Of a DNA stretch of 64,000 nucleotides, positions 20,078-43,971 are shown piece by piece. The notes beneath the pieces are model-generated. The model was not told where the DNA came from and did not search any database. It saw only the letters and a program-made list of their open reading frames with translations. Both the position numbers and the translations under genes were made by a program. Position 1 is the first letter of the stretch. The number at the start of each line of letters is the position of its first letter. This stretch comes from an uncultured Gammaproteobacteria bacterium (lineage in GTDB: Bacteria; Pseudomonadota; Gammaproteobacteria; GCA-001735895), in the NCBI GenBank assembly GCA_947259485.1, contig CAMYLU010000005.1, positions 72,714-136,713 of the forward strand. The letters are read 5' to 3'.

Positions 20078-20093
20078 TTTAGTTTATCGGTTG

Positions 20094-20179: not shown

Positions 20180-20208
20180 AGTGGGTGAGCGTCCCCGCAG
20201 CATAAGGC

Positions 20209-21042: not shown

Positions 21043-21044
21043 GA

Positions 21045-21401: not shown

Positions 21402-21425
21402 GATTAATTCCTCTCAAATTTCGTA

Positions 21426-22850: not shown

Positions 22851-22871
22851 GAAAAAATCTCCAATTTAAAA

Positions 22872-23954: not shown

Positions 23955-23969
23955 GTCAAAACCTCTCCA

Positions 23970-25979: not shown

Positions 25980-25992
25980 AATTTCTTCTCCG

Positions 25993-26868: not shown

Positions 26869-26877
26869 GGGCAGAGC

Positions 26878-27909: not shown

Positions 27910-27972
27910 ATTTTACCGTTTCACATCTTATCTGTATGTGCCGGGATTCTGGAGAGACTTGATTATTTAGTA

Positions 27973-27989
27973 AAGTTTAATAAACTTTC
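27973..27989. promoter_or_regulatory. Perfect 17-bp palindrome AAAGTTTA-a-TAAACTTT in the cbbR-cbbF divergent intergenic region; putative CbbR (LysR T-N11-A type) operator
   Basis: The half-sites are exact reverse complements. It lies 6 nt upstream of the cbbR ATG, inside the 85-nt divergent spacer. Confidence 0.5.
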
Positions 27990-27994
27990 AATTT

Positions 27995-29809: not shown

Positions 29810-29974
29810 GCCATTACCCTGTATTTGATCGCTAAAAGTTTGACGAGGATTCATCGATAATCTCGAGAGTATCGCTCGAGCTCGCTTACAGCCGCCCTCA
29901 AGATCCACTGCTTCCCGGACCTTTATGATTTACAAGAACGCTTTTGATATCCCGAAAACAGACACTGAAAATCC

Positions 29975-30015
29975 ATTTCGCAGTGACGGCTAACGACCCA
30001 ACTCAGACGCTCATA
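29975..30015 (+). repeat. Partial copy of the intergenic repeat family (GCTAACGACCCAAyTCAGAC module)
   Basis: Shares GGCTAACGACCCAACTCAGACGCTCA with the copy at 34489..34628. Confidence 0.5.
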
Positions 30016-30060
30016 ATAGTAAGCCGATAAACGCTATTGGAGGATCTGTTATTGGGACGG

Positions 30061-31839
30061 TTACTCCGTCAGGCCCGCCATATGCAAGCCGTCGAGTAAA
30101 TGTCGCCAGTCCGCCTCGGTACGGAAATTGTCTTTGATGTTGCCGAGTAGTTCAGCAGTGGTGTTAGCTGACACTCCCGAAGATTTAAGCACCTTTTGGC
30201 GTTTTGCGATGAATTTGTTCAATGTATCTCGGGCCTGTTCGAGCTCACCCACCCGCGCAAAGGAAGCAGCCAGGTAAGCGTAATCCCAAGCATCCACAAG
30301 GGCCGCACGCAGAGTATTGATTGCTTCCTGATAGCGACCGGCGTAGTAGTAGCCTTGACCCAGCCATCTTTGGTATAAATCAGGAAAAAGCGGATTGAGG
30401 CGAATCGCCTCTTCCAGCTGAGCAATCCCCACATCAAGACGCCCAGCATGTAATAAGGCATGACCCAGTTCGGCCAAAACATCCGCGTCACCCGGCTTCA
30501 ACGCCAACACCCGGTCAAGTTCCAGTTCGGCTTCCTCCCATTGGCCATAACCGATAAGCGCCCACGCCAGGATACATCGGGCCAGGGCGTCATTGCTATC
30601 AAACTCTAATGATTTCCGAGCGTTTTCAAGACTATGCTGCAATGCATTCTCCGTACGCAACCAGCCCAGGAAGTAATCCACGGCATAAGTATTGGCGAGT
30701 CCCGCATAGGCTCTCGAGAACTGCGGGTCACGCTCAATTGCCTGCTGGTATAGCCGTGCTGCTGCGATATTGTCATCTGGATTGAAGCGATTGAATTTAC
30801 GATTGGCCTGCAACAGGTATTCGTATGATTTGATACTGGTCGTAGCTTTCCTGGATGCATTCTCTGCTATGGTCTTACCTAATTGCGCGGCAATGGTAGC
30901 GACAATGGCCCGCGTTACCTCGTCCTGAACCGCGAAGATGTCGTCCAGTTCCCTGTCATAGCGTTCAGCCCAGATATGTTTTCCGGTTTCAGCGTCGATC
31001 AGCTGTGCAGTAATTCGGACCCGGTTCCCAACCCGGCGAACACTACCTTCGACAACGTATTGCGCGCTGAGTTTTTCAGCCACCTCCTTGATATCTATCT
31101 TTTCGCCCTTGAAGGCAAACGAAGAATGCCGGGCAATAACATACAGTATGGGAAAGCGGGAAAGTTCGGTGATGATGTCCTCGGTTATTCCGTCGCTAAA
31201 ATACTCCTGCTCCGGGTCACCACTCATGTTACTAAGGGGTAGCACTGCAATAGAAGGTTTTTCCGTGACGTCCGTAGTCGAAACTTTCTGTTGGTTTTGG
31301 CCGTGAGGTTGGAGTTGCTGTTTTACCGCGTAAGCCCGGACCGGTTCATCGAAACCCTTCAGTTCCTGTTCTCCCAGATTTTCGTATTCAAATGGTAGCC
31401 GCTTGGGTATTGTTTCGTATGCGGCCCCTTGGATGCAGATGCCTCCAGCCTCGGCTAGCTGCTCCAAACGCTGTGCCAGCACTATGCCTTCGCCTGTTAC
31501 GGTATTGTCGGCCACAACCACCTCGCCCATGGCAATACCAACTCGAACTATGGGGCGGATTTCGTCCTGTAACGATTCAATATGCAGGGCATTCGCAGAC
31601 TGAAAATCGACTGAAGCACTGACAGCATCCGATGCCCGGGAAAATTCGGCAACTAGCGCGTCACCCCGAATCTCATGTGCGACGCCATTATGGTTGCTTA
31701 TGGTTTCGGAGAAACGCCGAAAGGCATCCCGGAAGCGCTCGTGAGCCAGGATCTCGTCCTGTCGCACAAGCCCGGTTGAATCCACCACATCGGCATGGAG
31801 GATAACTGCGAGTTTTCGCGATAGTTGATCCTTATCCAT
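30061..31839 (-). CDS. Class III adenylate/guanylate cyclase (CHD) fused to a conserved ILPF...DGxTEDxIT domain and C-terminal TPR repeats (paralogue 1)
   Basis: N-terminal cyclase homology domain (LAVILHADVVDSTGL...IRVGIAMGEVV). Middle domain reads IAVLPLSNMSGDPEQEYFSDGITEDIITELSR...RVRITAQLIDAETGKHIWAERYDR. TPR-like repeats follow at the C-terminus. Confidence 0.75.
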   Translation of the reverse strand: MDKDQLSRKLAVILHADVVDSTGLVRQDEILAHERFRDAFRRFSETISNHNGVAHEIRGDALVAEFSRASDAVSASVDFQSANALHIESLQDEIRPIVRVGIAMGEVVVADNTVTGEGIVLAQRLEQLAEAGGICIQGAAYETIPKRLPFEYENLGEQELKGFDEPVRAYAVKQQLQPHGQNQQKVSTTDVTEKPSIAVLPLSNMSGDPEQEYFSDGITEDIITELSRFPILYVIARHSSFAFKGEKIDIKEVAEKLSAQYVVEGSVRRVGNRVRITAQLIDAETGKHIWAERYDRELDDIFAVQDEVTRAIVATIAAQLGKTIAENASRKATTSIKSYEYLLQANRKFNRFNPDDNIAAARLYQQAIERDPQFSRAYAGLANTYAVDYFLGWLRTENALQHSLENARKSLEFDSNDALARCILAWALIGYGQWEEAELELDRVLALKPGDADVLAELGHALLHAGRLDVGIAQLEEAIRLNPLFPDLYQRWLGQGYYYAGRYQEAINTLRAALVDAWDYAYLAASFARVGELEQARDTLNKFIAKRQKVLKSSGVSANTTAELLGNIKDNFRTEADWRHLLDGLHMAGLTE

Positions 31840-31914
31840 GGATGGCCTTATTAGGAATTATTCGAGAAATACTATCACAAGCAGTTAATTTATGGGCTTG
31901 AGTGAGCTGTTGGC

Positions 31915-32000
31915 GAGCGTCCGCTTTTGGCCGTTCTCGGAAGCCCAGATTGTGATTTTTAGCGTCCGCTATTGAGGAAGCTGACTCTCCTGTGTCTAAT
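31915..32000 (+). repeat. Intergenic repeat family copy (two GAGCGTCCGCT sub-repeats)
   Basis: Contains GAGCGTCCGCTTTTGGCCGTTCTCGGAAGC ... AGCGTCCGCTATTGAGGAAG. Confidence 0.7.
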
Positions 32001-32009
32001 TACTAATTT

Positions 32010-32699
32010 TTATTTTTTCGAAAACTCGAACCTTATCCGCAACTCCCCCTCAAACCAGCTATCAATACTCAGAATACCCTTTTTTTCCGCTATATAAAAT
32101 CCATCCTGTGCTTCGGGCTCCACACGCTTGAACTGCATTTCATTATTCGAATAATGCACCGTAAGGCTTACATGGTAAGGATAATAGCCATCAAGGAATT
32201 TGCGATGGTAGGGTCCGTGTTGCATAGAATAGGTTTTATCGGATAGGTGCTGTAATACTTTCACATCCGCCTGCACACACAACACTGCGCCTTTCTCTAC
32301 GTCTTCCAGTTCGACTCCATTCTGTCCAACACGAATTTGTGCAATTTGTTCTACGCGAGTCACTTGTAGATTTTTCATTTTACGATAGGCATACACCACA
32401 TCGGTCCTGCCCACCGCATCCAGATGCCGGTAACATTGTTGCATTTTTACCCAGCCGGTTTGCAGACTCTCGTTGGTTACCCATAGGTGGGTATCGGAAT
32501 GCAAAATCAATTGGTCATGTATGGGAGCAATGAACTCCAGCTGGCCTTCATTGACTTGCTGGGCGCGCCATTCACTGTCGTCGTCCGGCCAGCTTTCATC
32601 AACGGGCGATTCTGCTGCAGTAAGCATTACAGGAAATAGCAAAACCCAAATCGCTTTAATTGAAATGCGTTTACCAGTGATAAACATCATGCTTGACAC
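32010..32699 (-). CDS. Secreted hypothetical protein (229 aa)
   Basis: Signal peptide KAIWVLLFPVMLTAAESP. No recognisable domain. Confidence 0.5.
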   Translation of the reverse strand: MSSMMFITGKRISIKAIWVLLFPVMLTAAESPVDESWPDDDSEWRAQQVNEGQLEFIAPIHDQLILHSDTHLWVTNESLQTGWVKMQQCYRHLDAVGRTDVVYAYRKMKNLQVTRVEQIAQIRVGQNGVELEDVEKGAVLCVQADVKVLQHLSDKTYSMQHGPYHRKFLDGYYPYHVSLTVHYSNNEMQFKRVEPEAQDGFYIAEKKGILSIDSWFEGELRIRFEFSKK

Positions 32700-32762
32700 C
32701 CATTAACGGGTAGTTTGCCGATATTATCAATATTTTACTTTTTACCGTCGAGATAAGGTATC

Positions 32763-32853
32763 AAGCGTCCGCTTCTGGCCGAAAATCGAAGCTCAGTTGG
32801 CACGCCCCAGCGTCTGCTTACAAGAAAACAGATCCCCGCCATGTGAAAATAGG
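32763..32853 (+). repeat. Intergenic repeat family copy
   Basis: Contains AAGCGTCCGCTTCTGGCCGAAAATCG...CAGCGTCTGCTTACAAGAAAACAG...ATGTGAAAATAGG. Confidence 0.7.
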
Positions 32854-33043
32854 CTTCCGAGATCAACCCAAATACGACGCTTACTCGAATTAACACCTGT
32901 CAAATGCAAGGTCTGACAATTTGTACGATCGAATCGCAAAGGTGGGAAACGACAATAGCTAAATATCCGGGGGTGCACGAGGAACTATTTCAGCTTCGCG
33001 GCCTGGATGACTGATACAATTCGCGACCGAGAAGTGGCGGCCA

Positions 33044-34417
33044 TTGCCGCCGGGCAAAAGCATGCAAGAAACCGAAGACCATCAGCAGAGTTTCAAGTGG
33101 TTTGCGTTAGCATTATCCCTGGGTGGCTATCTGATCACTTTTTGGGCCTGGCCTTCGCCTGACTCCAACCAGGCCGTGGTGGCGGCCACACTGGTTGCAG
33201 TTATCGTCCTGTGGGTGACAGAAGTTATACCGCTGTACGTCTCCGCGCTGACCGGTTCCTTCCTGCTCCTTGCGCTCGGCGATTTCTCCGCCGGTGAAAT
33301 TTTCCAGCCCTATTTTGATCCGGTGATCGTCTTGTTTCTGGGTGGGTTCGTGCTTGCCCGGGCATTGCAGAAGTATGAAATCGACCGTCGCGTCGCGCAC
33401 GAGGTTCTCAAGCGTCTCGGTGATAGTCCGCTGATTTTCGTACTCGGGCTGATGCTGGTGACCGCCTTCCTGTCGATGTGGATGTCGAACACGGCATCGG
33501 CGGCCATCATGATCCCGATCTCCATTATCGTGCTCCGCGAAAATAATCTGTTCCACAAGCATTCCCGATTCGCCCGGGGCGCCGTGCTAGCTGTCGCGTA
33601 TGCGGCCACTATCGGTGGAATCGGTTCTCTGGTTGGAAGTCCGCCCAATGCTATTGCAGCCAGGTACCTCGGCGAGAACGGTATCTCGCTGGATTTCCTC
33701 GAATGGATGCTCAAGGCATTGCCCTTTGTCTTATTGGCGCTGCTGTTTACCTGGTTATTATTATTTCTGTTCAACAAACCCGAGATAGAGAAAATAGAGT
33801 TCAAGTACGAGGCGATGCCGATCAACCGGCCGCAAAAGCTCATATTCCTCGTTTTTCTAATCACCGTCGTGGGCTGGCTCAGCACCAAATATACCGGCCT
33901 TTCGGCTTCCACGGTTGCACTGATTCCAGTAATCAGCCTGTTCGCGCTGGGTCTGCTGGACGAAAACGACCTGGGCAGGATTTCCTGGCCGACGCTGTTG
34001 CTTTTCGGCGGGGGGCTGAGCCTGGGGTCAGCGGTCAGCCAGGTCGGCATCGATATCTGGCTGGCGTCTATGGTGAAGGTCTGGATTGCCAATATTCCGC
34101 TGTTTCTGGCGCTAACGGCACTCGTGTTTTTCGGTATCCTAGTGACCATGGTGGCTAGTAACACCGCCTCCGCAGCGATACTGATTCCGCTGATGCTACC
34201 CCTGTCCAGCAGCCTCGGAATCGATATGAAGTCGATTGCGCTGTTGATCGCTATCGGCGTATCTTTGGACTTCATGATGCCGGTGGGCACGCCACCGAGC
34301 GCGATTGCCTACTCCACCGGCGTTGTCAGCGTGCGCGATATGATCAGGAATGGATTCATGGTTAATATCGGCACCGGACTGATTCTGGTGACGCTGTACT
34401 ACTTCTTTTACCTTTAG
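33044..34417 (+). CDS. DASS/SLC13-family (ArsB/NhaD-superfamily) anion:Na+ symporter
   Basis: 457 aa, polytopic. Conserved SNTASAA motifs occur twice, with hairpin-loop signatures typical of DASS transporters. Confidence 0.7.
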   Translation: MPPGKSMQETEDHQQSFKWFALALSLGGYLITFWAWPSPDSNQAVVAATLVAVIVLWVTEVIPLYVSALTGSFLLLALGDFSAGEIFQPYFDPVIVLFLGGFVLARALQKYEIDRRVAHEVLKRLGDSPLIFVLGLMLVTAFLSMWMSNTASAAIMIPISIIVLRENNLFHKHSRFARGAVLAVAYAATIGGIGSLVGSPPNAIAARYLGENGISLDFLEWMLKALPFVLLALLFTWLLLFLFNKPEIEKIEFKYEAMPINRPQKLIFLVFLITVVGWLSTKYTGLSASTVALIPVISLFALGLLDENDLGRISWPTLLLFGGGLSLGSAVSQVGIDIWLASMVKVWIANIPLFLALTALVFFGILVTMVASNTASAAILIPLMLPLSSSLGIDMKSIALLIAIGVSLDFMMPVGTPPSAIAYSTGVVSVRDMIRNGFMVNIGTGLILVTLYYFFYL

Positions 34418-34488
34418 GCCCATGCCTGATCGAGCGTGGCTCACATCAAGGGGTGCGGTCATGGTCCGAAGCAGATAGCAAACTTTTT

Positions 34489-34628
34489 TAGCGTCCGTTC
34501 CTGGCCGAAGTACGACCCTGATGTTTCAAGTTTGAGTGTCCGCTATCGAGAAAGCAGACGCTTAAAACTCAAAATTCAGCTTCCGCTAACGACCCAATTC
34601 AGACTCTCACTTGTTATGTGAAAATAGG
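34489..34628 (+). repeat. Intergenic repeat family copy (long form)
   Basis: Contains TAGCGTCCGTTCCTGGCCGAAG...GAGTGTCCGCTATCGAGAAAGCAGACGC...CTTGTTATGTGAAAATAGG. Confidence 0.7.
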
Positions 34629-34662
34629 AAAAAAGCGTTCGTTTATCTTAGGAAATGGGGCT

Positions 34663-36435
34663 TCAAGCTGCAGTTGTGTCAGGTAACCCTGCTTTCTTGA
34701 GGTCTATGGCAATCTGCCGGGGAACGACTTCATCTTTATAGAATTCTGTCTCGAGGAAGTTTCCGATAGAAAAACTCGGATTGCTAATCAATAATTCCTC
34801 GACGGCCTTTCTCAGAGCCATTTCGTCATCCAAATGACTTAATGCGGCTACTAGATATGCATGGGAGCGCTGCGATTTGTGTAAGAGCTGTGATACGACG
34901 TTGACGGTTTCACGATAATTTCCAAGGACGTAATGTGCGGCCGCCTCAAGTTCACGACAGTAGGTTGGCAACAGGGGGTCCAGTGTTTTTGCACGATTCT
35001 GATATTCCAGAGCCTTTTCCCCGTCCCCAAGAAAATTGTATATTTCGCCCATACGGCCGACTAGGTAGGCATGGTTGGGATTGAGGTCGAGTGCACGTTG
35101 GAAATGGTATTCAGCCTTGTCAAAGTCTCGGTCGTACAGACTAAGAGACCCCATTATCCGATGACATTCTGGCTCATTTTCATCAAGTTCTAAACCTCGT
35201 CGTCCCGAAGCTACGGCTTCATCCTTGTAATCGTCTCCTGTCCATTCGCCTAAGGTGGTAATTGCACAAGCATGCCAAGCGTATGCGCGACCATATTCTG
35301 GGTCCTTTTCGATTGCCATATTGAACCAGTGAAGTGCCTGCTCCGCTGATTCCTGTGTTACACCTCCCAGTCGGTGGTTCTCCAGACCACGAAGCAGGCA
35401 TTCGTATGCATACATATCTGCCGGTTTCTTCTTCTTTGCCGAAACCAGCGTTTCGTGCTCCATCCGTCCTGCAACCATTGAAACAATCGACTTGGCCAGC
35501 TCGTCCTGAACCTCAAACAATTCGGTCAAGTCACAGTCATATTTTTCAGCCCAAACATGATCCCCAGTTTGGGTACTGATAAGCTGGCACGTAATCCGAA
35601 TGCGGTCACCCATTTTTCGCACACTGCCTTCCAGGCAATAGGCGACACCCAATTGTTTACCCACTTCCCGTAAATCGAGGTTCTGGCCCTTGAAGGCAAA
35701 ACTAGCATTTCGCGACGTAACAAATAATCCAGTAAAGCGGGCGAGTTCAGTTATCAGGTCATCGGTAAAACCATCTACAAAATACTCTTGTTCTGAATCG
35801 TCACCAAAAACTGCAAACGGCAAGACTGCTAACGAATTTGGATTAACAATTTCTTGTTGATTAATAGATATAACCTCTGGATCGCCGGACATGCAACTAT
35901 GGTTTCCAAGTTCTCCAACTACGCGATAGGCTTGAACAGGCTCTGAGATATTTTTCAGGACCTGTTCGCCTTGGTTTTCAAATGTAAGTTGGGCTACTCG
36001 TTTCACATTATCAAATACAGCTCGCGAAATAAGAATTGAACCTGGATCGGCTAACCCTTCAAGCCGTGCTGCGATATTGACATCATCCCCGTAGATGTCT
36101 TCGTCATCCCAAAATATATCACCGAGATTAACGCCCATACGAAACCACATGCGTTTTTCTTCGGGTATGTCTTTTACCCGGGGTTCGATACTTTTCTGAA
36201 TGGCGTAGGCAGCTAATACGGCATTGGTCGCCGAGATGAATTCTGCCAAAAACCCATCGCCGGTCAGCTTTACAATCCGACCTGAGAACTCCTTTATTAT
36301 CGGATCGACAATTTCATGTCGATATGACCACCAAGTATTGATGGTTCCCTCTTCATCCATACGCATTAGACGCGTGTAGCCTGCCACATCAGCGGCCAAG
36401 ACCGCAGCTAATCGCCGTTGCGCCTGTTGTTCCAT
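34663..36435 (-). CDS. Class III adenylate/guanylate cyclase fused to the ILPF...DGxTDDLIT domain and TPR repeats (paralogue 2)
   Basis: CHD N-terminus (LAAVLAADVAGYTRLM...FRMGVNLGDI). Middle domain reads LAVLPFAVFGDDSEQEYFVDGFTDDLITELARF...RIRITCQLISTQTGDHVWAEKYD. C-terminal TPRs follow. Architecture matches 30061..31839. Confidence 0.75.
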   Translation of the reverse strand: MEQQAQRRLAAVLAADVAGYTRLMRMDEEGTINTWWSYRHEIVDPIIKEFSGRIVKLTGDGFLAEFISATNAVLAAYAIQKSIEPRVKDIPEEKRMWFRMGVNLGDIFWDDEDIYGDDVNIAARLEGLADPGSILISRAVFDNVKRVAQLTFENQGEQVLKNISEPVQAYRVVGELGNHSCMSGDPEVISINQQEIVNPNSLAVLPFAVFGDDSEQEYFVDGFTDDLITELARFTGLFVTSRNASFAFKGQNLDLREVGKQLGVAYCLEGSVRKMGDRIRITCQLISTQTGDHVWAEKYDCDLTELFEVQDELAKSIVSMVAGRMEHETLVSAKKKKPADMYAYECLLRGLENHRLGGVTQESAEQALHWFNMAIEKDPEYGRAYAWHACAITTLGEWTGDDYKDEAVASGRRGLELDENEPECHRIMGSLSLYDRDFDKAEYHFQRALDLNPNHAYLVGRMGEIYNFLGDGEKALEYQNRAKTLDPLLPTYCRELEAAAHYVLGNYRETVNVVSQLLHKSQRSHAYLVAALSHLDDEMALRKAVEELLISNPSFSIGNFLETEFYKDEVVPRQIAIDLKKAGLPDTTAA

Positions 36436-36543
36436 TAGATAGCTCTATAGCGAATAATAAAACGATTAATCAGTATGCTAGTTAGCCCAAGATAAGGCAA
36501 ATGAGAGACCGACTTCGGCGAAATCTCCCCATGTTCACGAAAC

Positions 36544-36659
36544 AGTCCTTCTCCAGTGTCCGAAACTGGCCGATTCGAGAAGCCTGGGAAGCGTATTTCA
36601 GGGTCTGCTATTGAGAAATCGTAAGCGCAACGAGTGGTTTTGCCGGATTACATGCGCTT
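36544..36659 (+). repeat. Intergenic repeat family copy (long form ending TTGTTGTGTGGC)
   Basis: Contains CAGTGTCCGAAACTGGCCGA...GGTCTGCTATTGAGAAATCG...GAGTGGTTTTGCCGGATTACATGCGCTTGTTGTGTGGC. Confidence 0.7.
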
Positions 36660-36695
36660 GTTGTGTGGCTACTCCATCATAAAGAAGCTACGCAG

Positions 36696-37088
36696 CTATT
36701 CCGAAGATGGATTATCGCTGGTAAGTACATTGACATGAAACTTCCAGCTACCATCAGTTTGTCGCTTAAAGACGTTTACTGATTTACCCGTTTCGGTGAA
36801 GACCGTCCCATCATCATTATCATAGTCTTCGGAGTAGGCAACTATCGAATATGCCAAATCGTTGTCGATAGACAACTCCAAGTCAGTAACTTTCTTGTTC
36901 TTTGCGCCGCCCTCGATCCAACCTTGCATGGCTATTTCGACTGCATCTCGACCATGGGCATTATCACCATAGGAAGAGAGAACCCACGCGTCTACTGTGT
37001 AACATGCTGCACAAGCCTTTGCGTCTCTTTGTTCAAACGAATTAATCCAAGTTTGGTGGAGTTTTTCTAATTCAGCCTCGGCGCTCAT
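36696..37088 (-). CDS. SnoaL-like/NTF2-fold protein (DUF4440-like)
   Basis: Start is set at the internal ATG (MSAEAELEKLHQTWINSF...), which has a perfect AGGAGG RBS. The longer track ORF (to 37202) would leave only 19 nt to the divergent gene and overlaps a repeat copy. Confidence 0.6.
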   Translation of the reverse strand: MSAEAELEKLHQTWINSFEQRDAKACAACYTVDAWVLSSYGDNAHGRDAVEIAMQGWIEGGAKNKKVTDLELSIDNDLAYSIVAYSEDYDNDDGTVFTETGKSVNVFKRQTDGSWKFHVNVLTSDNPSSE

Positions 37089-37117
37089 AGCACTTCCTCC
37101 TGATAAAGAGAATTGAC

Positions 37118-37210
37118 CCGATAACATATTATCACTGTTAATGGGCGTCTGCTGTTGGCCGTTACCCCACAGCCGGATTCTAGAAGTTGAGTGGCTGCTC
37201 ACTATAGAGT
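37118..37210 (+). repeat. Intergenic repeat family copy (GATAACATATTATC-containing variant)
   Basis: Contains CCGATAACATATTATCAC...GGGCGTCTGCTGTTGGCCGTT...GAGTGGCTGCTCACTATAG. Confidence 0.6.
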
Positions 37211-37221
37211 AACTTCTCGCT

Positions 37222-37845
37222 ATGTATGTACTTCACTGGTCAAGAGGATGTGGGTCGTTCGCACCACACGCTGCTCTTAGCGAGGTCAGTGCGTCATACG
37301 AACTGATTGAAGTCGATTTGGACTCCAATCAGGAATACACAGAAGAGTTTCTGGCGATAAATCCACGGGCCCAGGTACCGGTGTTGACGTTGCCGGACGG
37401 GACCATAATGACCGAGTCTGTGGCCATGATGATTCACATCGCCGACTGTCATCCTGCGTCAGGCCTCATGCCTGAGGTCGGACAGACCGAGCGTGCTATT
37501 GCCTATCGATGGCTCGTGTTCAGTGCTGTTAATCTTTATGAGACGGGATGCCGTATCGAGGATACACATCACTACTCGGCGAAGAAGTCGGACTATGAAG
37601 GCATCCGTGCGAAAGCGCGCCATGATCTCGATCAGCATTGGGAAATGGTGGCCGACGCCATAGGTGAAGGACCTTACCTATTGGGACAGCGTTACTCGGT
37701 GGTCGACATCTGTCTGCTCATGATTGCGCAATGGCATCCTGAACCTGGCTCTCTCGTCGGGAGATATCCAAATCTCGGCAAGCTGTGCGATGCGGTAAAG
37801 AACCGACCTGCGATTGAGGCAATTTGGAATCTGAACTTTCCTTAG
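37222..37845 (+). CDS. Glutathione S-transferase family protein
   Basis: N-terminal thioredoxin-like GST motif (VLHWSRGCGSFAPHAAL...VPVLTLPDG) and a C-terminal helical domain. Confidence 0.7.
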   Translation: MYVLHWSRGCGSFAPHAALSEVSASYELIEVDLDSNQEYTEEFLAINPRAQVPVLTLPDGTIMTESVAMMIHIADCHPASGLMPEVGQTERAIAYRWLVFSAVNLYETGCRIEDTHHYSAKKSDYEGIRAKARHDLDQHWEMVADAIGEGPYLLGQRYSVVDICLLMIAQWHPEPGSLVGRYPNLGKLCDAVKNRPAIEAIWNLNFP

Positions 37846-37857
37846 AATGACTCCATT

Positions 37858-37980
37858 GAGCGTCCGAAAGTGGCCGAAGATTGCCGCCTGGATAGGACTT
37901 CTCAGCAGCGTCTGCTATTGAGAAATCGTCGGCGTAGTGAGTGGTTGCTCGACTGCATGCGTTTGTTATGTGGCAATTGG
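37858..37980 (+). repeat. Intergenic repeat family copy (long form ending TTGTTATGTGGCAAT)
   Basis: Contains GAGCGTCCGAAAGTGGCCGAAGATTGCC...CAGCGTCTGCTATTGAGAAATCG...GAGTGGTTGCTCGACTGCATGCGTTTGTTATGTGGCAATTGG. Confidence 0.75.
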
Positions 37981-38003
37981 TCTCTATGGGCATTCTGAAG
38001 TAA

Positions 38004-38453
38004 CTACAGTGTCGCGAGCATAAAAGCGCGATCAAGTTTTTCAAATCCTGATTTTTCGTACAAAGCTGCAGCTTCTGGATTATCGTTTTTTACTTCGAGC
38101 TGTATTGTTGTTATGTCAAGTTCTCGACAAGTGTTTTTAAGAAATTCCATTGCCTGGCGTCCAATACCCATCCCTCGATTTTCTTCACGTAAAAATAATT
38201 CATCCATGCTTGCACTTAATCCCCGTGACTCTAATCGGTAGTGTAGGGTTAGGACAATGTATCCAATATTTGCTTCGTTATGTTTAATTAACCAAACTCG
38301 CCCGACTGACTCGTTTGCCACTACGGTTTCCATTGCAGTTTGAGCGGGCCCAATATCGAATGGTGTCGTATGATCAAACTCATGAAAGTCTTGCATGAAC
38401 TTCATTAATATTGGTAAGTCTGAGGTTTCAGCCCTTTCGAAAGACACGCTCAT
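38004..38453 (-). CDS. GNAT-family N-acetyltransferase
   Basis: Acetyl-CoA binding motif RGMGIGRQAM. Size is 149 aa. Confidence 0.8.
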   Translation of the reverse strand: MSVSFERAETSDLPILMKFMQDFHEFDHTTPFDIGPAQTAMETVVANESVGRVWLIKHNEANIGYIVLTLHYRLESRGLSASMDELFLREENRGMGIGRQAMEFLKNTCRELDITTIQLEVKNDNPEAAALYEKSGFEKLDRAFMLATL

Positions 38454-38477
38454 GTTCCTTCTCCGTTAGTTAATGTT

Positions 38478-38605
38478 TGATTGCCACATAACAGCTGGAT
38501 TATAAGGTTTTTGCCTCGATAACATATTATCGCGGAAATGGTGAGCGTCCGCTAATGGCCGAAATACGAAGCTCGTCATTTGGCAATGAGTGTCTGCTTC
38601 CAGGA
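38478..38605 (+). repeat. Intergenic repeat family copy (begins with the inverted ATTGCCACATAACA module)
   Basis: Contains GATTGCCACATAACAG...CTCGATAACATATTATCGC...GTGAGCGTCCGCTAATGGCCGAAATACG...GAGTGTCTGCTTCCAGG. Confidence 0.75.
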
Positions 38606-38625
38606 TTCAGGTAGCCGGAGGTGGC

Positions 38626-38847
38626 CTAATCTAGTTGCTTGACATTAGGATGGCGTTCTGTGGCCCATTCGTGGCATATATCGTCAAGATATTGGCCGAT
38701 CTCCGACTCCGGGAGGTCAGGTGGTACTGCTATATCTGGTGCAGAGCGTCTTTTCCCATCATCACCCAAATAAAACGTAACCCATCCGTTGTTTGACGCG
38801 GCAATAAGAACTCGACGTCCAAAAACATCAAACCTTAGAGCCGTCAT
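38626..38847 (-). CDS. Small hypothetical protein (73 aa)
   Basis: An ORF between two repeat copies with no domain call. Coding status is uncertain. Confidence 0.35.
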   Translation of the reverse strand: MTALRFDVFGRRVLIAASNNGWVTFYLGDDGKRRSAPDIAVPPDLPESEIGQYLDDICHEWATERHPNVKQLD

Positions 38848-38914
38848 AGTCGTTTCTCACTGCCTAATGCACAAGTTACAGGTCAGTATATATCAGTCGG
38901 GTTTAGGCTTGAGG

Positions 38915-38985
38915 GTTGATGTCCGCTTCTGGCCGTAATCAGAAACACAACATGTGCGTTTGAGTTTCTCCTTTGGGTGCGTATT
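38915..38985 (+). repeat. Intergenic repeat family copy (degenerate)
   Basis: Contains GAGGGTTGATGTCCGCTTCTGGCCGTAATC...GTGCGTTTGAGTTTCTCC. Confidence 0.5.
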
Positions 38986-39027
38986 CCTAGCTAGTTCGGT
39001 TCCACCCTTAGGACTAGAACCGCGAGT

Positions 39028-40332
39028 TTAGGCAAAGGCGTGTAACATGGCATTGCGCACCTGCCACGCCTGTGTGCCGGTATCGGCGTCGATGTCTTTG
39101 AGCGTGATCACTTGGCCCTGCTTTATCGGCGCGGTTAATATGACTTCGCTTGCAAGACCTATCGGCAATGCCTGCGCACTGATACTGGCATTCGCTGGCA
39201 TAATCCTTCCCCAGACGGTGTAGCCGCCTTCGCCATCAAGGGTTTCGTCCACTTCGAGATCGCGCTTGGCCACCGCGACAACATCGGCGTTGAAACCCAC
39301 CGGTGCCCCTGTGGGTTGGCCGCGTAACGCGGCACTCAGAATCGAAATATTGAGTTCCAGGCCAATTAAATGAAAAGGTTTGAACATTGCCGAGTAACGG
39401 CCGCTGTCGTCGGTGTTCATCCCGTATTGCCGGAAACAGGCCGCGCTATAGTCGTTGGACGCTTCGAACACACAGTACACGCCCCAGCGCAGATCGCGGT
39501 TAACGGGTTTGCCATCACGCTCGAGGCTCGACACCACTTCCACTTGGCCGGAAAACTCGAGCTGACCTCCGACGCTTCGAGGTCGCAGCACCTGCGCGAG
39601 GTCATCCGCGCTGCAGGGTGGGAAGGCGAGGCCATTGCCGGGCACCTGTAATCCCGACGCATTGGCGATCGCAGCCATTTCGATGCTGGACTTGGTGCCG
39701 TCGAGGAAGGAATTGAACATCTGGCTGCGCATGCCGGCGGCGGCGGCTTCCGCCGCGCTCAGACCGTAATGCGACCAGACCGTGTCCGGGGTCGATTCGT
39801 GGTAGCTCGACAAATATTTGGTACCTTTGCCGGCCGCGACCACGTTAAAGCCGCAGCTGCGTGCCCAGTCGATCATTTCCATGGTCAACGCTGGTTGATC
39901 GCCGTAGGCCATCGAGTAAACAACGCCGGCTTGTTGTGCTTGTTGCGCGAGGTAAGGACCAGCTAGTACATCAGCCTCGACATTGACCATAATGATGTGC
40001 TTGCCGTGGGCGGCGCATAGCAGCGCGTGTTTGATGCCAGCCGCTGGATAACCGGTGGCTTCGACCACGACATCGACTTTGTCCCCGCGAATCATGACCT
40101 CAGCGTCATCAACAAACTCGGTATTGACCACCCGGCTATCGTCCCAGCCGACCTCGCGGCAACGCGCGATGGCCTGGGCGGGGTCGAGATCGGCGATGGT
40201 GGTGACCACCAGTCCCGGAGTGGTGGGCACCTGGGCGAGGAACATAGAGCCGAATTTGCCAGCGCCGATCAGACCGACCCGTACCGGCTTGCCGTCGTTA
40301 GCGCGCTGAATCAGCGATGAATAGAGATACAT
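39028..40332 (-). CDS. NAD(P)-binding oxidoreductase with a C-terminal SAF domain (COG4091 'predicted homoserine dehydrogenase'-like)
   Basis: Rossmann motif VGLIGAGKFGSMF at the N-terminus of the trimmed ORF. Start is set at the ATG at 40330..40332 (MYLYSSL...). The longer track ORF (to 40725) overlaps the upstream PhyH gene in another frame. Confidence 0.6.
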   Translation of the reverse strand: MYLYSSLIQRANDGKPVRVGLIGAGKFGSMFLAQVPTTPGLVVTTIADLDPAQAIARCREVGWDDSRVVNTEFVDDAEVMIRGDKVDVVVEATGYPAAGIKHALLCAAHGKHIIMVNVEADVLAGPYLAQQAQQAGVVYSMAYGDQPALTMEMIDWARSCGFNVVAAGKGTKYLSSYHESTPDTVWSHYGLSAAEAAAAGMRSQMFNSFLDGTKSSIEMAAIANASGLQVPGNGLAFPPCSADDLAQVLRPRSVGGQLEFSGQVEVVSSLERDGKPVNRDLRWGVYCVFEASNDYSAACFRQYGMNTDDSGRYSAMFKPFHLIGLELNISILSAALRGQPTGAPVGFNADVVAVAKRDLEVDETLDGEGGYTVWGRIMPANASISAQALPIGLASEVILTAPIKQGQVITLKDIDADTGTQAWQVRNAMLHAFA

Positions 40333-40345
40333 GGAAGTGGCAGGT

Positions 40346-41125
40346 TTACGCGACCAGCTCGAGCAGCGTATCGTCAGCCAGCGGCTCAATCGGGTTGAAA
40401 TCACGATGCGCGACCCATTCCGGTCGCTTGAACTGGCGGATATGGTTATCCACGTGGCACAGGGATAGGTACACGATGGTACGGTCCATCGGACTGATGT
40501 TAGGGGGGCTGGCATGTACAAGCAGGCTCGAAAACATAAGCATCGAACCGGCATCGCCGGTAGGTGCCACGCATCCGCCCTGGTCATAAAGCCTGGTAAC
40601 GGTTTCCCGGTCCAGGGTCCACAGCGGATAGCTGGTAGTTTCGAGGTCATGGTCCGCTTCGACCACTCCCTGCCTGTGACTGCCTGGGATAAACAGCAAC
40701 GGGCCGTTGGCAGCGGTGACATCATCCAGAAACACGGCGATATTCATCGCGCGCGGTTCGGGCATTAAATCATCGCGTGCCCAGGTACCGTAATCCTGGT
40801 GCCATTGCCAGACATCGCCATCGAATGCAGCCTTGGCGTTAACCTTGTACTGGTGCATGTAAACCGGGCCGTCGAGCAACCGCATCACTGGTTCGATCAG
40901 GCGTGGGTGTGCGCCGAGTCGGCGGAAGGCATCGTTATAGGTATGTGCCGCGAAGGCAGTGCGTGCGACACCCGTTTTCTCGCGCCAGACTTCCTCGCGT
41001 TGTAACGCGTAAACATCGAGCGCGGCCTGCTTTAGAATCCCTGTTTCCTCGGAGGTGAAAGCGTTTGGAAAAAACAGGTAGCCATCCTGTTCAAATTTTT
41101 CGATTTGCTGATCAGTTAGATGCAT
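40346..41125 (-). CDS. Phytanoyl-CoA dioxygenase (PhyH) family Fe(II)/2-oxoglutarate-dependent oxygenase
   Basis: The HxD...H facial triad context (WHQDYGTW ... HASPPN) and the 259 aa length fit PhyH-family hydroxylases. Confidence 0.7.
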   Translation of the reverse strand: MHLTDQQIEKFEQDGYLFFPNAFTSEETGILKQAALDVYALQREEVWREKTGVARTAFAAHTYNDAFRRLGAHPRLIEPVMRLLDGPVYMHQYKVNAKAAFDGDVWQWHQDYGTWARDDLMPEPRAMNIAVFLDDVTAANGPLLFIPGSHRQGVVEADHDLETTSYPLWTLDRETVTRLYDQGGCVAPTGDAGSMLMFSSLLVHASPPNISPMDRTIVYLSLCHVDNHIRQFKRPEWVAHRDFNPIEPLADDTLLELVA

Positions 41126-41293
41126 GGGCTCGAAAGCTTGTTCTCAAGCCTGATATATTACTTGAAAATTACACTTCATTCCTGTTATTGACGCCAAACC
41201 CGGTTTTTTCGCGTCGCGAGACTCCTCACGCACTAATTGTTTTTTTCAGGACATCTCCAAAGAACTACTTCTGACTGATTTGATTTTCCAACT

Positions 41294-41363
41294 GAGCATC
41301 TGCTTATGGCCGAAGATTGCCCCACGCAGGGGCTTTATGAGCGTCTGCTTTGAGGGAAACAGG
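41294..41363 (+). repeat. Intergenic repeat family copy (short form)
   Basis: Contains GAGCATCTGCTTATGGCCGAAGATTGCCCC...GAGCGTCTGCTTTGAGGGAAACAGG. Confidence 0.7.
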
Positions 41364-41387
41364 TTCTCAGGAAAAAATAATAAACTC

Positions 41388-41798
41388 TTAGGACTGATCA
41401 ATCTCGGCGACAGCCATACCACCAATTTCGATCAAAAGGCCATCCGTGGAAAGCGATGTTACTCCAACAAGCGTATTTGTCGGCAAACATTCCGATTGGA
41501 AAAATTCAGCAATCGTTCCAGTAACATCATTCAGTTGTGAAGGGTCGTAATTGACCACGTGAGTTGTGATTTGAACGATATCAGAAATTTGACCACCTCC
41601 AGTTTCGACGGCGGCTTTTAGATTTCTCATGGTTTGACGGGTTTGAGCAACGATATCATTTTTGCCGACTATCTTGCGGTCGCTATCAAATGACACCTGG
41701 CCAGATAAAAAGATTATACGCCCCCCTTCCGTGGCTACGACGTGGTGATAACTCTTTGGCGCTGGAGAGCCTGGAGGATTGAGGTACGATTTTTTCAT
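41388..41798 (-). CDS. RidA/YjgF-family reactive-intermediate deaminase
   Basis: 136 aa. The pattern (GGRIIFLSGQV ... the GVTSL region) is typical of YjgF/RidA. Confidence 0.75.
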   Translation of the reverse strand: MKKSYLNPPGSPAPKSYHHVVATEGGRIIFLSGQVSFDSDRKIVGKNDIVAQTRQTMRNLKAAVETGGGQISDIVQITTHVVNYDPSQLNDVTGTIAEFFQSECLPTNTLVGVTSLSTDGLLIEIGGMAVAEIDQS

Positions 41799-41876
41799 AA
41801 TTCCATGTCGCTTTCTTAAAGGGGGGATAGAAAGAATATGCGCTAATTGTCAAACGGTCTAGGCACGATTTCTGTG

Positions 41877-41946
41877 AGCGTCCGCTCCTGGCCGAAGATT
41901 GCCACTGGTGAGTAGTTATTCAGTGTCTGCTTTGGAGAAAACAGGC
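41877..41946 (+). repeat. Intergenic repeat family copy (short form)
   Basis: Contains GAGCGTCCGCTCCTGGCCGAAGATTGCCAC...CAGTGTCTGCTTTGGAGAAAACAGG. Confidence 0.75.
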
Positions 41947-42136
41947 GATCCGTGGAAGAACCAGCCTAACGGTTTCATAGCCTAACAAATGCCTGGGGAT
42001 CAGATACTAGAACCGATAATGGGTGCCTTCGTTTACCGGCAAATTAACCTTGTTCGCCAAATTTGCAATCGAACGGTATTTTTTCGACTATCTTTGTTCA
42101 TAACAAGCGTCGAAAAACATCTGAAAATCGGTCACT

Positions 42137-42673
42137 ATGAAAAGATTATTTGCCACCAGGCTTTGTTTAGGGCTTTTGCTGATATCCCTGCTCGTGAGCT
42201 GTGACCAGGTCGAGCAGCTGATTAAACAGGAAGCCAAACCGGTCAATTTTTTAAACGGGACTTTTTCGGTATTGAAACCTGGAAGCTGGTCGACCATGGA
42301 CAATCTGAACGATGAGGCTAATTTGCAAATGGGCAATCTTTTTAAGGAAGCCTATGTTGTTATTTTGACCGAGAACAAACAGGACTTCGACAATATCGGC
42401 CTGCAGGGCCATAGCGATTTGACGAGGTCTTTCATGAGGGAAGCGCTGAAGAATTACCAGGAGTCGCAACGGGTAAAACTCGATATCGGCGGTCATTCGG
42501 CGTTGCGCTACCGCCTGAGCGGAAGCGTGGATAGTATCAAGATTGTCTACTGGCACGTGACCATCGAAACCGCCGATCATTTCCACCAGATGTTGCTGTG
42601 GAGCCTGCCGTCAAAATTTGGCGGAAACGAGGCCGATTTCAATTCCGTGATTCGATCATTCAAGGTACTCTAG
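42137..42673 (+). CDS. Hypothetical lipoprotein
   Basis: Signal peptide plus lipobox LLVSC. No domain call. Confidence 0.5.
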   Translation: MKRLFATRLCLGLLLISLLVSCDQVEQLIKQEAKPVNFLNGTFSVLKPGSWSTMDNLNDEANLQMGNLFKEAYVVILTENKQDFDNIGLQGHSDLTRSFMREALKNYQESQRVKLDIGGHSALRYRLSGSVDSIKIVYWHVTIETADHFHQMLLWSLPSKFGGNEADFNSVIRSFKVL

Positions 42674-42920
42674 CCTCGAACCCGCGCAACGTAGGCTCGG
42701 AATCAGACTTACGCGTTAGATTTTTCTTTTAAGATTCTGGGGACACAATTAACGACAGGTCTCCTCGTGCTCCCCAACTGTCGGAAAATTAAATAAAGAT
42801 CGCACCATAGATTGTTGTCTGGATTGACTTTTACCTAGAACCTCATAAAATACTTTATGATTCAAATATAACTTGCTAAATTTAAACAACTTAATTATTT
42901 CAATTTTAATTAAATAGTTA

Positions 42921-43250
42921 GTGAGGTTCTGGGAATTGTCTTATATCAAAAAAATGGTCGAACGACGTGCTTCCAGGCGCGATCGGCGTTTCTTAGGAAA
43001 TCGACGCTCCAACTACATGCGATATATCCATGCCACCAACGAAGAAAACAAGCGTTTGGGGTTATTCTGGCAGCGATTGATTACTCAAGAATTTATCACT
43101 GAAGAAGACGCATTATTACTGGCCGAGAATTTCTTCCAGGAGTTAGGCGGGTATAGTGACGAGATGGCGAAAGACATGGTCCGAAAAATCTTGAGCGAAG
43201 TCGCTGATCAGTACAGGACTAAAACAACCTTGACCCCGGCAGCCGGTTAG
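42921..43250 (+). CDS. Hypothetical protein (109 aa) in an AT-rich segment
   Basis: ORF only. The upstream 250 nt is strongly AT-rich. Confidence 0.35.
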   Translation: MRFWELSYIKKMVERRASRRDRRFLGNRRSNYMRYIHATNEENKRLGLFWQRLITQEFITEEDALLLAENFFQELGGYSDEMAKDMVRKILSEVADQYRTKTTLTPAAG

Positions 43251-43387
43251 CGGGTAATCAATCCTGTAATATAGCCCTGCCACCGTGCTGGGATTTTTGT
43301 GTTTACTCAGCGTCTGCGACGGCCCGGATAAAGGGTATTGCCAATTGCAGCAAATATATATCGCGAATGGGTTAACGAAAGATTCGA

Positions 43388-43756
43388 CTACTTTCTTTTT
43401 TTAAGCATTGACGCCAGATCCGCAAACGGGTTGTAGGTTTCCTCTTTATTTTGCGTTTCGGTTGTGGAATCGCCATAAGCTGAGTCAACAAGGCGGGAAT
43501 GCTCGTTATCATGACAATAGACACATAACAGCTCCCAGTTGCTGCCGTCACCCGGGTTATTGTCATGATCGTGATCGCGGTGATGAACTGTCAGCTCCTG
43601 CAGGTTTTTCTGGTTGAACTCACGGGCGCATCGTCCGCATACCCACGGATACATTTTCAACGCCCTGCTGCGGTAACTTTGCTCTCTTTCTTCACGGGCT
43701 ACGCGCGCCTGCGAAACAACGCGATCAAGTTTGTCAGTGGAATTTTTCGATGACAT
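43388..43756 (-). CDS. yajD: YajD-family HNH endonuclease-like protein
   Basis: Motifs CGRCAREF...HHRDHDHDNN...CVYCHDNEH (CxxC...HH...N...CxxCH). Confidence 0.7.
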   Translation of the reverse strand: MSSKNSTDKLDRVVSQARVAREEREQSYRSRALKMYPWVCGRCAREFNQKNLQELTVHHRDHDHDNNPGDGSNWELLCVYCHDNEHSRLVDSAYGDSTTETQNKEETYNPFADLASMLKKRK

Positions 43757-43971
43757 TGTGGCTACGTAATATAGTATGTATTCGGCTCACTTGTCTGTAT
43801 CCCTCAGACCATTGTACTGATGACTGGAAGCTTGAACTGTCAAGCCTACATGATATACCCGATCGTTCCAATGAGACCGACCCTGGTTTCTCTGCGTTTA
43901 TAACCTGCCCTCCTTGACTATAAATAACCGAAAAGGTACCGTTTTTTCGATTACCAAAAAGACAAAGGACT

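Follow-up and report, generated by a model that had tools for sequence, protein, structure and literature searches.

What kind of locus is formed by a run of mostly small, unrelated genes with the same conserved repeat at nearly every junction? The question is raised by a contig of an uncultured gammaproteobacterium (GenBank assembly GCA_947259485.1, contig CAMYLU010000005.1), of which a stretch of 64,000 nucleotides, called the window here, was analyzed. For the region between 29.9 and 42 kb, a first-pass annotation had left two answers side by side: a cassette array of a chromosomal integron, with the repeats as attC sites, or an island colonized by miniature inverted-repeat transposable elements (MITEs) or repetitive extragenic palindromes (REPs). 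The region descends from integron cassettes. It is probable that the stretch at 29.9-42.1 kb belongs to a sedentary chromosomal integron as a satellite array, resembling a cluster of attC sites that has no integron-integrase (CALIN), with hybrid junctions, largely frozen and with its integrase elsewhere. The junctions are mosaics of up to three parts: T, the 5' half of an attC; the core, which is the repeat that had been counted; and P, a compacted copy of attI. The core is a distinct, clade-specific palindrome tied to integron-derived junctions. Open reading frames (ORFs), Pfam assignments and the junction map place the whole array at 29940-42136, with the minus strand as the cassette ('top') strand.

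One gene of the array, which encodes a 149-aa acetyltransferase of the GNAT family (38004-38453, minus strand; Pfam Acetyltransf_1), is a genuine integron cassette, extending over 37965-38492. In integrons the crossover lies at G|TT of the R' box; what follows it is already the 5' end (TTRRRY...) of the next cassette, which is complementary to the R'' of that same cassette over more than the 7-bp box. At locus L061 (L-numbers denote the loci of relatives that were compared with the window) the match to the own-cassette R'' is 9-12 nt in 8/9 junctions, against 3-7 nt for the R'' of the same site, and over all loci it averages 8.9 nt compared to 5.45 nt for non-cognate pairs (Mann-Whitney p = 1e-6). 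For the GNAT of the window the inverted repeat is 13 nt long and free of mismatches (GTTATGTGGCAAT, 37965-37977; ATTGCCACATAAC, 38480-38492). The 16-nt 5' end of this cassette, GTTATGTGGCAATCAA, is identical in the GNAT cassettes of L065, L066 and L067, the proteins being only 69% identical, and cassette ends like those of the window are found in these three loci and in L061. Since related GNAT cassettes follow attI (L065), five different attCs (L061, L062, L066, L067) or core-P (window, L047, L051), the GNAT cassette is mobile. The alternative that this ORF, flanked by inverted repeats, is a REP-associated tyrosine transposase (RAYT) was dropped when Pfam identified it as GNAT, not a Y1 transposase.

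Homologues of the window GNAT led to genuine integrons of related uncultured Gammaproteobacteria. In L061 a homologue with 64% identity lies inside a textbook integron, whose IntI (TIGR02249, 432 bits compared to a cutoff of 265) is divergent from more than 25 small co-oriented ORFs, including HicAB, CcdAB, NERD, GNAT, MarR and GFA. The attCs of L061 are 75-80 nt long and have the form YCTAAC-AAGCG-CATGCAGYCGGAC-(variable hairpin)-GGCCGCTGATGCnGGnC-GTTAGRG. A GNAT also opens the cassette row of L065, next to an integrase of 329 aa that was assigned by Pfam (PF13495 and PF00589) and by its 47% identity to the IntI of L061. L065 and L068-L072 have intI and attI at a conserved argH-hydrolase locus, the order in L068-L072 being hemCDXY, LytTR/histidine kinase, argH, hydrolase and intI. 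At the same attI (~7770) the first cassette varies by sample (L068 compared to L069, L071 and L072; L070): either tannase follows directly or a 174-aa ORF comes first. A block of CcdAB and GNAT is likewise present in some samples and absent from others at the L068-L072 integron. The main integron of the clade is active, since the first cassette at the same attI differs between samples.

The attC family of these integrons was defined from an alignment of 17 sites, which have an R stem, an L stem with two extrahelical bases, and a variable stem that covaries at its base. In this alignment 85.4% of the cells pair, as against 24-46% with slid partners, and the observed covariation was reached in 0/500 shuffles. 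A covariance model (R1) built on the clade attC finds 37 sites in related loci at E<0.01, many of them outside the training set. The T module is the 5' half of this attC, comprising R'', L'' and the start of the variable stem, because the T profile matches eight attCs of L061, and the attC profile in turn matches the window at 37924-37970 (21.5 bits), where it covers only positions 2-49 of the 76 in the model. The consensus of T is GCCACATAAC-AAGCG-CATGCAGTCGGAC. The long-form tail (GCCACATAACAAACGCATGCAGTCG...) is this half, and the attC-like appearance previously remarked for the minus-strand sequence GCCACA(T/C)AACAA(A/G)CGCATG is thereby explained as the R''-L'' half of the attC family of bona fide integrons. 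Two T modules lie in the window on the minus strand. The first, at 37921-37977 (T2 profile, 38 bits), is the 5' half of the attC of the GNAT cassette and consists of R'' ACATAAC, the spacer AAACG, L'' CATGCAGTCG and the start of the variable stem; the second, at 36614-36670 (45.3 bits), begins with CACACAACAAGCGCATGTAATCCGGC and follows the SnoaL gene. Neither contains the complete succession of R'', L'', variable stem, L' and R', the 3' half being replaced by the core.

The P module is a homologue of the attI of the clade. P modules align with the attI of L065 through AAAGGTCAAAGACCTTTTAAATAGGCTGTTATGTGG and with the array start of L062, and in canonical integrons the P profile matches only at the attI position (L065 9925-9971, L062 471-510, L068 7776-7821). 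They are about 45-60 nt long, including a part resembling direct repeats, have the consensus GATAATATGTTATCAGGTCAAnnACCTTATAATnnnGCT-GTTATGTGG with a conserved TATAAT, and end in an R' box, GTTATGT or GTTAGGC, just upstream of the next ORF. The absence of attI from the window, as reported earlier, has to be revised: an attI-like module ending in GATAATATGTTATCGAGGCAAAAACCTTATAATCCAGCT-GTTATGT lies at 38485-38541 (minus strand; P2 profile, 60 bits), with its R' box GTTATGT running from 38492 to 38486 directly upstream of GNAT, and a partial one lies at 37106-37137 (minus strand, 25.0 bits) between the GST and SnoaL genes. Both are inside the array, away from any intI. The region 37106-37206 shares a repeat, TTGxCxCGATAACATATTATC, with 38511-38531. 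A 16-nt palindrome, CGATAACATATTATCG in the plus-strand reading, is found at 38516-38531 and 37118-37133, in front of both the GNAT and the SnoaL gene; within P it answers to the TTATCAGGTCAA repeats of the true attI, and it resembles operators of the Fur/Zur type. Module X (GATAATATGTTATC) was considered by eye as a dif, Fur or Zur box, and these candidates were dropped because a compacted form of the direct-repeat part of attI explains it better. Where the array begins (41964-41992, minus strand), two direct GTTAGGC boxes 17 nt apart (GGCATTTGTTAGGCTATGAAACCGTTAGGC) look attI-like, and there is a GCTTGTTATGA motif at 42100-42110 (minus strand), 110 nt upstream of them; the attI profile has no match in the array head (41.95-42.13 kb), which leaves the attI-like reading of the two boxes unconfirmed.

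The window contains no integrase. The earlier statement that intI is missing from it held up on two counts: among all 56 window ORFs Pfam finds neither a PF00589 match nor any other tyrosine recombinase, and tblastn with two IntIs of the clade finds nothing in the window at E<=1, so not even an intI remnant; the core-bearing loci were negative as well. Noise alone was obtained from tblastn with an approximate IntI1 query. The integrases of L061, L065 and L068-L072 served as positive controls. One weak IntI1 match, in L020 beside the first repeat, proved to be a short-chain dehydrogenase (SDR). Nor is there a complete attC. With its filters off, the clade attC covariance model gives a best match of 12.2 bits (E 0.33) in the 64-kb window, and therefore no junction there can be called a complete attC; the T modules score 11.3 and 8.8 bits, values that are not significant for a whole attC. 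The window thus has neither the IntI adjacent to the array of a complete integron nor, by the clade-specific model, the two or more attC sites without a nearby intI by which a CALIN is recognized.

The repeat itself is real, and the sequence modules quoted for it in the first-pass annotation are all present as written. The box1 pattern AGYGTCYGNNNNTGGCCG, with two mismatches or fewer, has 16 matches in the window compared to 2.09 expected, a number reached in 0/100 shuffles, and the box2 pattern AGYGTCTGCTWT has 11 compared to 0.82 expected. Box1 (AGCGTCCGCTnnTGGCCG) and box2 (AGYGTCYGCT) start 45 nt apart in all copies measured, with 48 nt once, and the stretch between them is variable in sequence. 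The module as a whole contains TTTCTCCAAAGCAGACGCTC followed by GGCAATCTTCGGCCAGnAGCGGACGCTC. A core profile trained on 36 copies finds 13 copies in the window with nhmmer at E<1e-4, of which 12 are within 29.9-42.0 kb and one is at 62.5 kb; the repeat is thus not confined to the array. Ten copies are on the plus strand, spanning 31.9-41.9 kb, and three are on the minus strand (29940-30012, 34534-34594, 62467-62540). The minus-strand copy at 34534-34594 forms a head-to-head palindrome with the plus-strand copy at 34490-34563. Of the claim of at least 11 copies in one orientation, the repeats therefore stand and the uniform polarity does not: only 10 are co-oriented, the copy at 29940-30012 is inverted and that at 34490-34609 is head-to-head. 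A very weak core-like match (12.6 bits) was also noted at 8903-8946, right beside tRNA-Gly(CCC).

In structure the core is an imperfect palindrome of 75-125 nt with a central hairpin and two AGCGKCYGCT boxes 45 nt apart. In 16 palindromic copies the arms pair over 58% of positions by Watson-Crick rules (65-69% with G.T), compared to 19-29% when slid, and the central hairpin is 69% paired compared to 7-33%. The outer stem, GAGYGTC/GACRCTC, has 7 bp and is followed by 5-6 unpaired nt, a 6-bp inner stem, TGGCCG/CGACCCA, and the variable part. In all 16 copies the inner stem has an invariant bulged base and an invariant C.A mismatch, which is G.T on the opposite strand. The geometry recalls that of an attC. 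The arms covary little, most pairs being invariant, and from the 16 palindromic cores RNAalifold returns the central hairpin and a local stem at box1 but nothing more; no conserved AAC/GTT is present in the right order on either strand of the core, which ends in GAGYGTC...GACRCTC, and the covariance model is silent on it. The core profile has no match in the canonical integrons of L061, L062, L065-L068 and L070, and one 15-bit match in L069. Because it is without AAC/GTT boxes, unmatched by the attC covariance model and not in canonical arrays, the core is not an attC. The attC reading of the junctions was thus right for the T tail and wrong for the box1/box2 repeat that had been counted. Local alignment of palindromic cores with attCs yields as its sole outcome an L'-like box of 10-12 nt, CGCCGCTGATGC, in the left arm of the core and in attC orientation (z = 3-4), too little to claim descent.

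Junctions in the window and in related loci take the forms of core alone, full palindromic core (~125 nt), T+core, core+P and T+core+P. In the fullest form, on the top strand, a stop codon is followed by T, core and P, then by 25-40 nt with a ribosome-binding site and by the next ATG. T passes into the core at the apex or L' region of the attC or slightly beyond it, and the attC 3' arm is never found downstream; an origin of this join by IntI crossover at G|TT was dropped, since the join is not at that position. Cores sit 20-80 nt past stop codons, and core is fused to P within about 10 nt in roughly 17/19 cases.

The two-box pattern was sought in one genome per species and was found in about ten metagenome-assembled genomes (MAGs) of uncultured Gammaproteobacteria, on many contigs. 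In the core arrays of these relatives the copies are of constant polarity, with a spacing of 0.5-1.5 kb (8/8 on one strand in L028, 7/7 in L035 and 5/5 in L029), and most ORFs are opposite in strand to the 'forward' orientation of the repeat; it is therefore the minus strand that is the cassette strand of the window. Besides cores, such arrays in related MAGs contain 9-10 complete canonical attCs that point the same way, so both site types coexist in one array. A variant core in L027, from a Woeseiaceae MAG (2817-4359), has a gap of 26 nt rather than 27 nt and its own arm sequences, and because the Woeseiaceae are more distant the repeat family may be wider than the clade studied.

In three close relatives (90-94% DNA identity) single gene modules are kept and their neighbors differ. 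L031 retains the cyclase-TPR gene at 34663-36435 with its flanks (91% over 1993 nt), and homology stops at 36573, inside box1. L044 retains the 5' part of the cyclase-TPR gene at 30061-31839 (90%), stopping at 31989, and L001 the DUF7661 module (94%), stopping at 38935, the end of TGGCCG. Homology with the close relatives stops inside or at cores, or 5 nt past a stop codon, these breakpoints being blurred by alignments that run through the conserved box1 by paralogy. Since close relatives keep single modules with different neighbors, the window array has been reshuffled recently, by site-specific recombination or by homologous recombination between repeats. Insertion sequences (ISs) are also found at attC positions in relatives. 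In L047-L050 (~10450-10694 in L047) the place of the attC that should follow GNAT is taken by the start of an IS110-family-like transposase (MKINRVGVDLAKNVF), a point at which four independent assemblies end; the L047 GNAT is 88% identical to that of the window. In L052-L054 (8251-8305 in L052) an rve-family IS directly follows an attC 5' half whose variable stem is truncated close to its apex, the same place where cores join attC halves.

Taken together, these findings make a satellite array of the clade's chromosomal integron the probable nature of the region. The cassette ends suggest that at least some of its genes entered as cassettes by IntI-type recombination at G|TT of the R' box. The integrase would act, or would have acted, in trans from the conserved argH-side locus. 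The 3' half of attC (L'-R') appears to be missing from every window junction, which would preclude the canonical attC fold, and the array would be largely frozen for attC x attC excision because most junctions would no longer be attC substrates. The two P modules could serve as double-strand attI-type targets for IntI in trans, as delta-attI sites do in integrons of classes 1 and 2 (PMC12901181). The core may have spread among the junctions of satellite arrays, either as a substitute for the 3' arm of attC or as an insertion that separates L' from R'.

Several observations weigh against this reading. Only 3-4/11 window junctions (38.5, 37.9, 37.1 and 36.6 kb) carry sequence derived from attC or attI, the others having core alone. 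The cassette origin of RidA, PhyH-DRL, the 229-aa ORF, the symporter and cyclase-TPR rests on context and on homologues in canonical arrays (L062). No integrase of the source genome is seen in the 64-kb window. The core-bearing arrays L051-60 and the intI loci L068-72 are tied together by a sample series, not by one proven genome. When T-core-P units are folded as DNA their ends pair over ~12 bp, the interior being weak and inconsistent, and such hybrids may still recombine. Finally, the core is conserved with invariant positions across MAGs, which argues for function or recent spread and not for simple decay.

Alternatively, the core would be a selfish, non-autonomous palindromic element, MITE- or REP-like, inserting preferentially into folded attC sites or other hairpins at the 3' ends of cassettes. 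Its distribution in arrays and its polarity would then mirror those of its targets, and the attC halves would be leftovers of insertion and deletion. This is a possible account, though a doubtful one. The imperfect palindrome with its pairing arms fits it, as do the half, full and inverted forms, the one copy outside the array after a non-array gene, the join at or just past the attC apex or L', and the IS110-like and rve-family ISs at attC positions in L047 and L052. IS1111-attC elements and group IIC-attC introns target attC sites and are precedents. Of the MITE alternative raised at the outset, the inverted arms and the copy outside the array remain; dispersal, target-site duplications and a parent transposase were not seen. 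In the window and in the fragmented MAGs of relatives, copies are clustered, at about one per kb in arrays, and not dispersed. The sequences flanking a few of the palindromic copies, read by eye and not tested systematically, showed no target-site duplications. Clustering of the ORFs near cores for a cognate recombinase or transposase gave cargo only (cyclase-TPR, LysR, SDR, FHA, PPK2, methyltransferase), and no transposase or RAYT recurs. An insertion should moreover leave the attC 3' arm downstream, where it is never seen, and the close fusion of core to P is unexpected of a random inserter.

Another reading, for which the conserved TATAAT of P and its constant place 25-40 nt upstream of an ORF with its own ribosome-binding site would speak, is that core and P are kept for expression. 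The hairpin, 20-80 nt after the stop codon, would insulate or stabilize the upstream transcript, and P would bring a promoter of the Pc type together with the operator-like palindrome GATAATATGTTATC, turning a silent array into separately expressed units. The cassette promoter of integrons lies in the intI-attI region (PMC4889954). This explanation is unlikely. Consensus scans detected neither a sigma-70 promoter at P nor intrinsic terminators at cores, the counts being not above those of shuffles, and no U-run follows the hairpin. Most window junctions have a core without P, and the polarity of the core is not tied to the direction of the upstream gene, the copies at 30.0 and 62.5 kb being inverted.

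Still less probable is a new class of folded-DNA recombination site with attC-like architecture and another core sequence (GAGYGTC/GACRCTC for RYYYAAC/GTTRRRY), arrays being built or shuffled by core x core or core x attI/attC exchange through IntI or another recombinase in trans. Core and multiplied attI-like landing sites would then form a second layer of cassette shuffling in a clade of uncultured chemoautotrophic Gammaproteobacteria. The stems, internal loop, invariant bulge and C.A mismatch (16/16) and variable region are attC-like, the CGCCGCTGATGC box is in attC orientation, polarity is constant within arrays, and the breaks in synteny between close relatives fall in or at cores. IntI cleavage of attC, however, needs the AAC/GTT triplets, which are absent. 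The attC covariance model does not score cores, arm covariation is slight with only the central hairpin given by RNAalifold, the apparent breaks where TGGCCG ends may have arisen only because paralogous copies align across the conserved box, and clustering of the ORFs near cores gave no candidate recombinase. Two further candidates were dropped: a CRISPR, as the two boxes share only 10 nt, and an inverted attC, as the order in which GTT-like and AAC-like bases follow each other does not fit one.

The array can be followed along its top strand from the right, with core scores from nhmmer and genes, unless noted, assigned by Pfam and on the minus strand. The first junction, at 41.9 kb, is a core (41876-41949, plus strand, 62.2 bits, with motif matches) upstream of RidA (41388-41798). 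The next, at 41.3 kb (41294-41368, plus, 41.1 bits), separates RidA from PhyH (40346-41125), which with the DRL/SAF oxidoreductase (39028-~40342), 3 nt away, probably forms one two-gene unit. A mechanically called 565-aa ORF (39028-40725) overlaps PhyH; its DRL domain begins near residue 148, which puts the real start at ~40342. A degenerate core (38921-38976, plus, 29.7 bits), the 39.0-kb junction, lies between the oxidoreductase and DUF7661 (73 aa, 38626-38847). These three junctions, like that at 31.9 kb, consist of core only. At 38.5 kb, downstream of DUF7661, a degenerate R'' is followed by a core (38543-38611, plus, 51.6 bits) directly fused to the P module that precedes GNAT. Beyond GNAT the 37.9-kb junction has T and core (37858-37928, plus, 46.5 bits), the core being fused to the T module and abutting the stop of the convergent GST gene (37222-37845, plus strand). 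A weak core (37143-37206, plus, 18.3 bits) and the partial P make up the 37.1-kb junction between GST and SnoaL/DUF4440 (36696-~37088).

At 36.6 kb the second T module is fused to a core (36555-36626, plus, 46.1 bits) upstream of cyclase-TPR (34663-36435). The 34.5-kb junction is the full palindromic core (34490-34609, both strands), recognized from arm pairing and from two profile hits that overlap, one on the plus strand (65.6 bits) and one on the minus strand (21.5 bits), beside an R'' remnant, CACATAACAAG, identified from its sequence at 34610-34628 (minus). After the Na/sulfate symporter gene (33044-34417, plus strand), a core with remnants of the second arm (GGCTTCCGAGATCAACCC...GACGCTTAC) occupies 32763-32880 at 32.8 kb (plus; core hit 32763-32834, 55.1 bits). 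The core at 31915-31988 (plus, 60.4 bits) lies between a 229-aa orphan ORF (32010-32699, an ORF call) and the other cyclase-TPR gene (30061-31839), and the inverted, divergent core at 29940-30012 (minus, 18.1 bits), the 30.0-kb junction, ends the array. The solitary core outside it, at 62467-62540 (minus, 56.0 bits), comes directly after the stop of a TPR/cyclase ORF (62547-63980).

Pfam confirmed the cargo proposed earlier (GNAT, GST, SnoaL, RidA, PhyH, the 73-aa ORF and the SAF oxidoreductase); to it are added the two 590-aa cyclase-TPR paralogues, the Na/sulfate symporter and the 229-aa orphan. Cyclase-TPR is the protein family that most often adjoins cores in relatives (7 members), and one such gene was found inside the canonical cassette array of L062. 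The ORF at 62547-63980 (Pfam TPR), cut off by the end of the window, is a third paralogue of the family. Near it, at 60508-62105, a HipA-like kinase and an upstream HTH (HipB-like) gene form a toxin-antitoxin pair, adjoined by a 71-aa orphan and the solitary core; homologues of both genes occur in L021.

The flanks of the array are ordinary chromosome, with a Calvin-cycle cluster on the left and efflux, OmpA and ExbB-type genes on the right. The Calvin-cycle cluster (17702-28927) encodes VWA/CbbO-like and CbbQ proteins, the small and large subunits of RuBisCO, class II fructose-bisphosphate (FBP) aldolase, transketolase and FBPase, with a divergent LysR (CbbR-like) regulator, and because of this cluster with RuBisCO the host is a chemoautotrophic gammaproteobacterium. 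Immediately to the right of the array, 42137-45689 is a low-GC stretch (45% at 42-44 kb) without repeat modules; it encodes an HNH endonuclease, a thioredoxin-like protein, three orphans (178, 109 and 91 aa) and a protein of 404 aa whose sole match, to beta-propeller repeats, is faint. An Rfam scan of the window found tRNAs only: tRNA-Gly(CCC) at 8808-8883, called by both tools, and a second match (48.5 bits) at 10908-10978, not called by ARAGORN.

It is a rule of integrons that there is one attI per platform and one attC per cassette. Here that rule is broken: attI-like sites are multiplied in chromosomal arrays, and a conserved palindrome, invisible to standard attC models, has taken the place of most attCs or is joined to them. 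Tools of the IntegronFinder type would probably miss or shorten such arrays, and the cassette reservoirs of environmental Gammaproteobacteria would be undercounted. The hybrid junctions amount to a natural experiment on two fates of cassette arrays, fixation and continued mobility by way of double-strand sites of the attI type, a matter examined so far mainly in clinical mobile integrons with delta-attI cassettes. If the core were a recombination site, the few folded single-strand DNA substrates of recombination would gain a new one; if it is only a parasite of attC hairpins, it is still a clean example of a repeat family specialized on integron junctions.

Compared with canonical attCs of the Vibrio cholerae repeat (VCR) type, T has the R'' (ACATAAC or GCCTAAC), the 5-nt spacer and the L'' (CATGCAGTCGG), and it shares ATAACAAACGC with what we take to be the 5' end of VCR. 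The complete sites of the clade likewise have extrahelical bases and a covarying variable stem. In contrast, the window junctions have no L'-spacer-R' in place, and the core has no AAC/GTT. REPs and the mosaic elements built from them (BIMEs), enterobacterial repetitive intergenic consensus (ERIC) sequences and MITEs are, like the core, imperfect palindromes of 75-125 nt, intergenic and near the 3' ends of genes, with full and half forms and some inverted copies. The core differs from them in being strongly clustered in cassette arrays with constant polarity and fused to fragments of integron sites, with no target-site duplication by eye, RAYT or parent IS found. With the IS1111-attC group and group IIC-attC introns it shares the foreign sequence inside attC in one orientation, but it is ~100 nt long and non-coding, and what should follow of the attC downstream has gone, whereas displacement would have kept it.

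The likeness to CALINs, or satellite arrays, extends to the co-oriented, mostly small and unrelated accessory genes, to the lack of intI within 64 kb, to cassettes shared with complete integrons of relatives and having cassette-specific R'/R'' inverted repeats, and to clade integrases at another, conserved locus (Cury et al., 2016; PMC4889954). Unlike CALINs, the window has attC 5' halves only, with no complete attC by the clade-specific model; most junctions carry a different repeat, and attI-like modules lie inside the array. In delta-attI-type cassettes a fragment of attI ending in the crossover box GTTRRRY lies downstream of an ORF inside an array, and such sites are recombined by IntI1 (PMC12901181). 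The P module after DUF7661 (38485-38541), which aligns with the L065 attI, is of this kind, an attI fragment ending in GTTRRRY after an ORF in place of the normal 3' end of attC. Unlike those cassettes, the window array is chromosomal and belongs to an uncultured environmental gammaproteobacterium; the attI fragment is long (~45-60 nt) and occurs many times per array in relatives, and in front of it there is always the palindromic core and in some cases an attC 5' half too. What sets the locus apart from both CALINs and delta-attI cassettes is the combination of no recognizable complete attC, repeated long attI-like modules and a conserved palindrome at nearly every junction.

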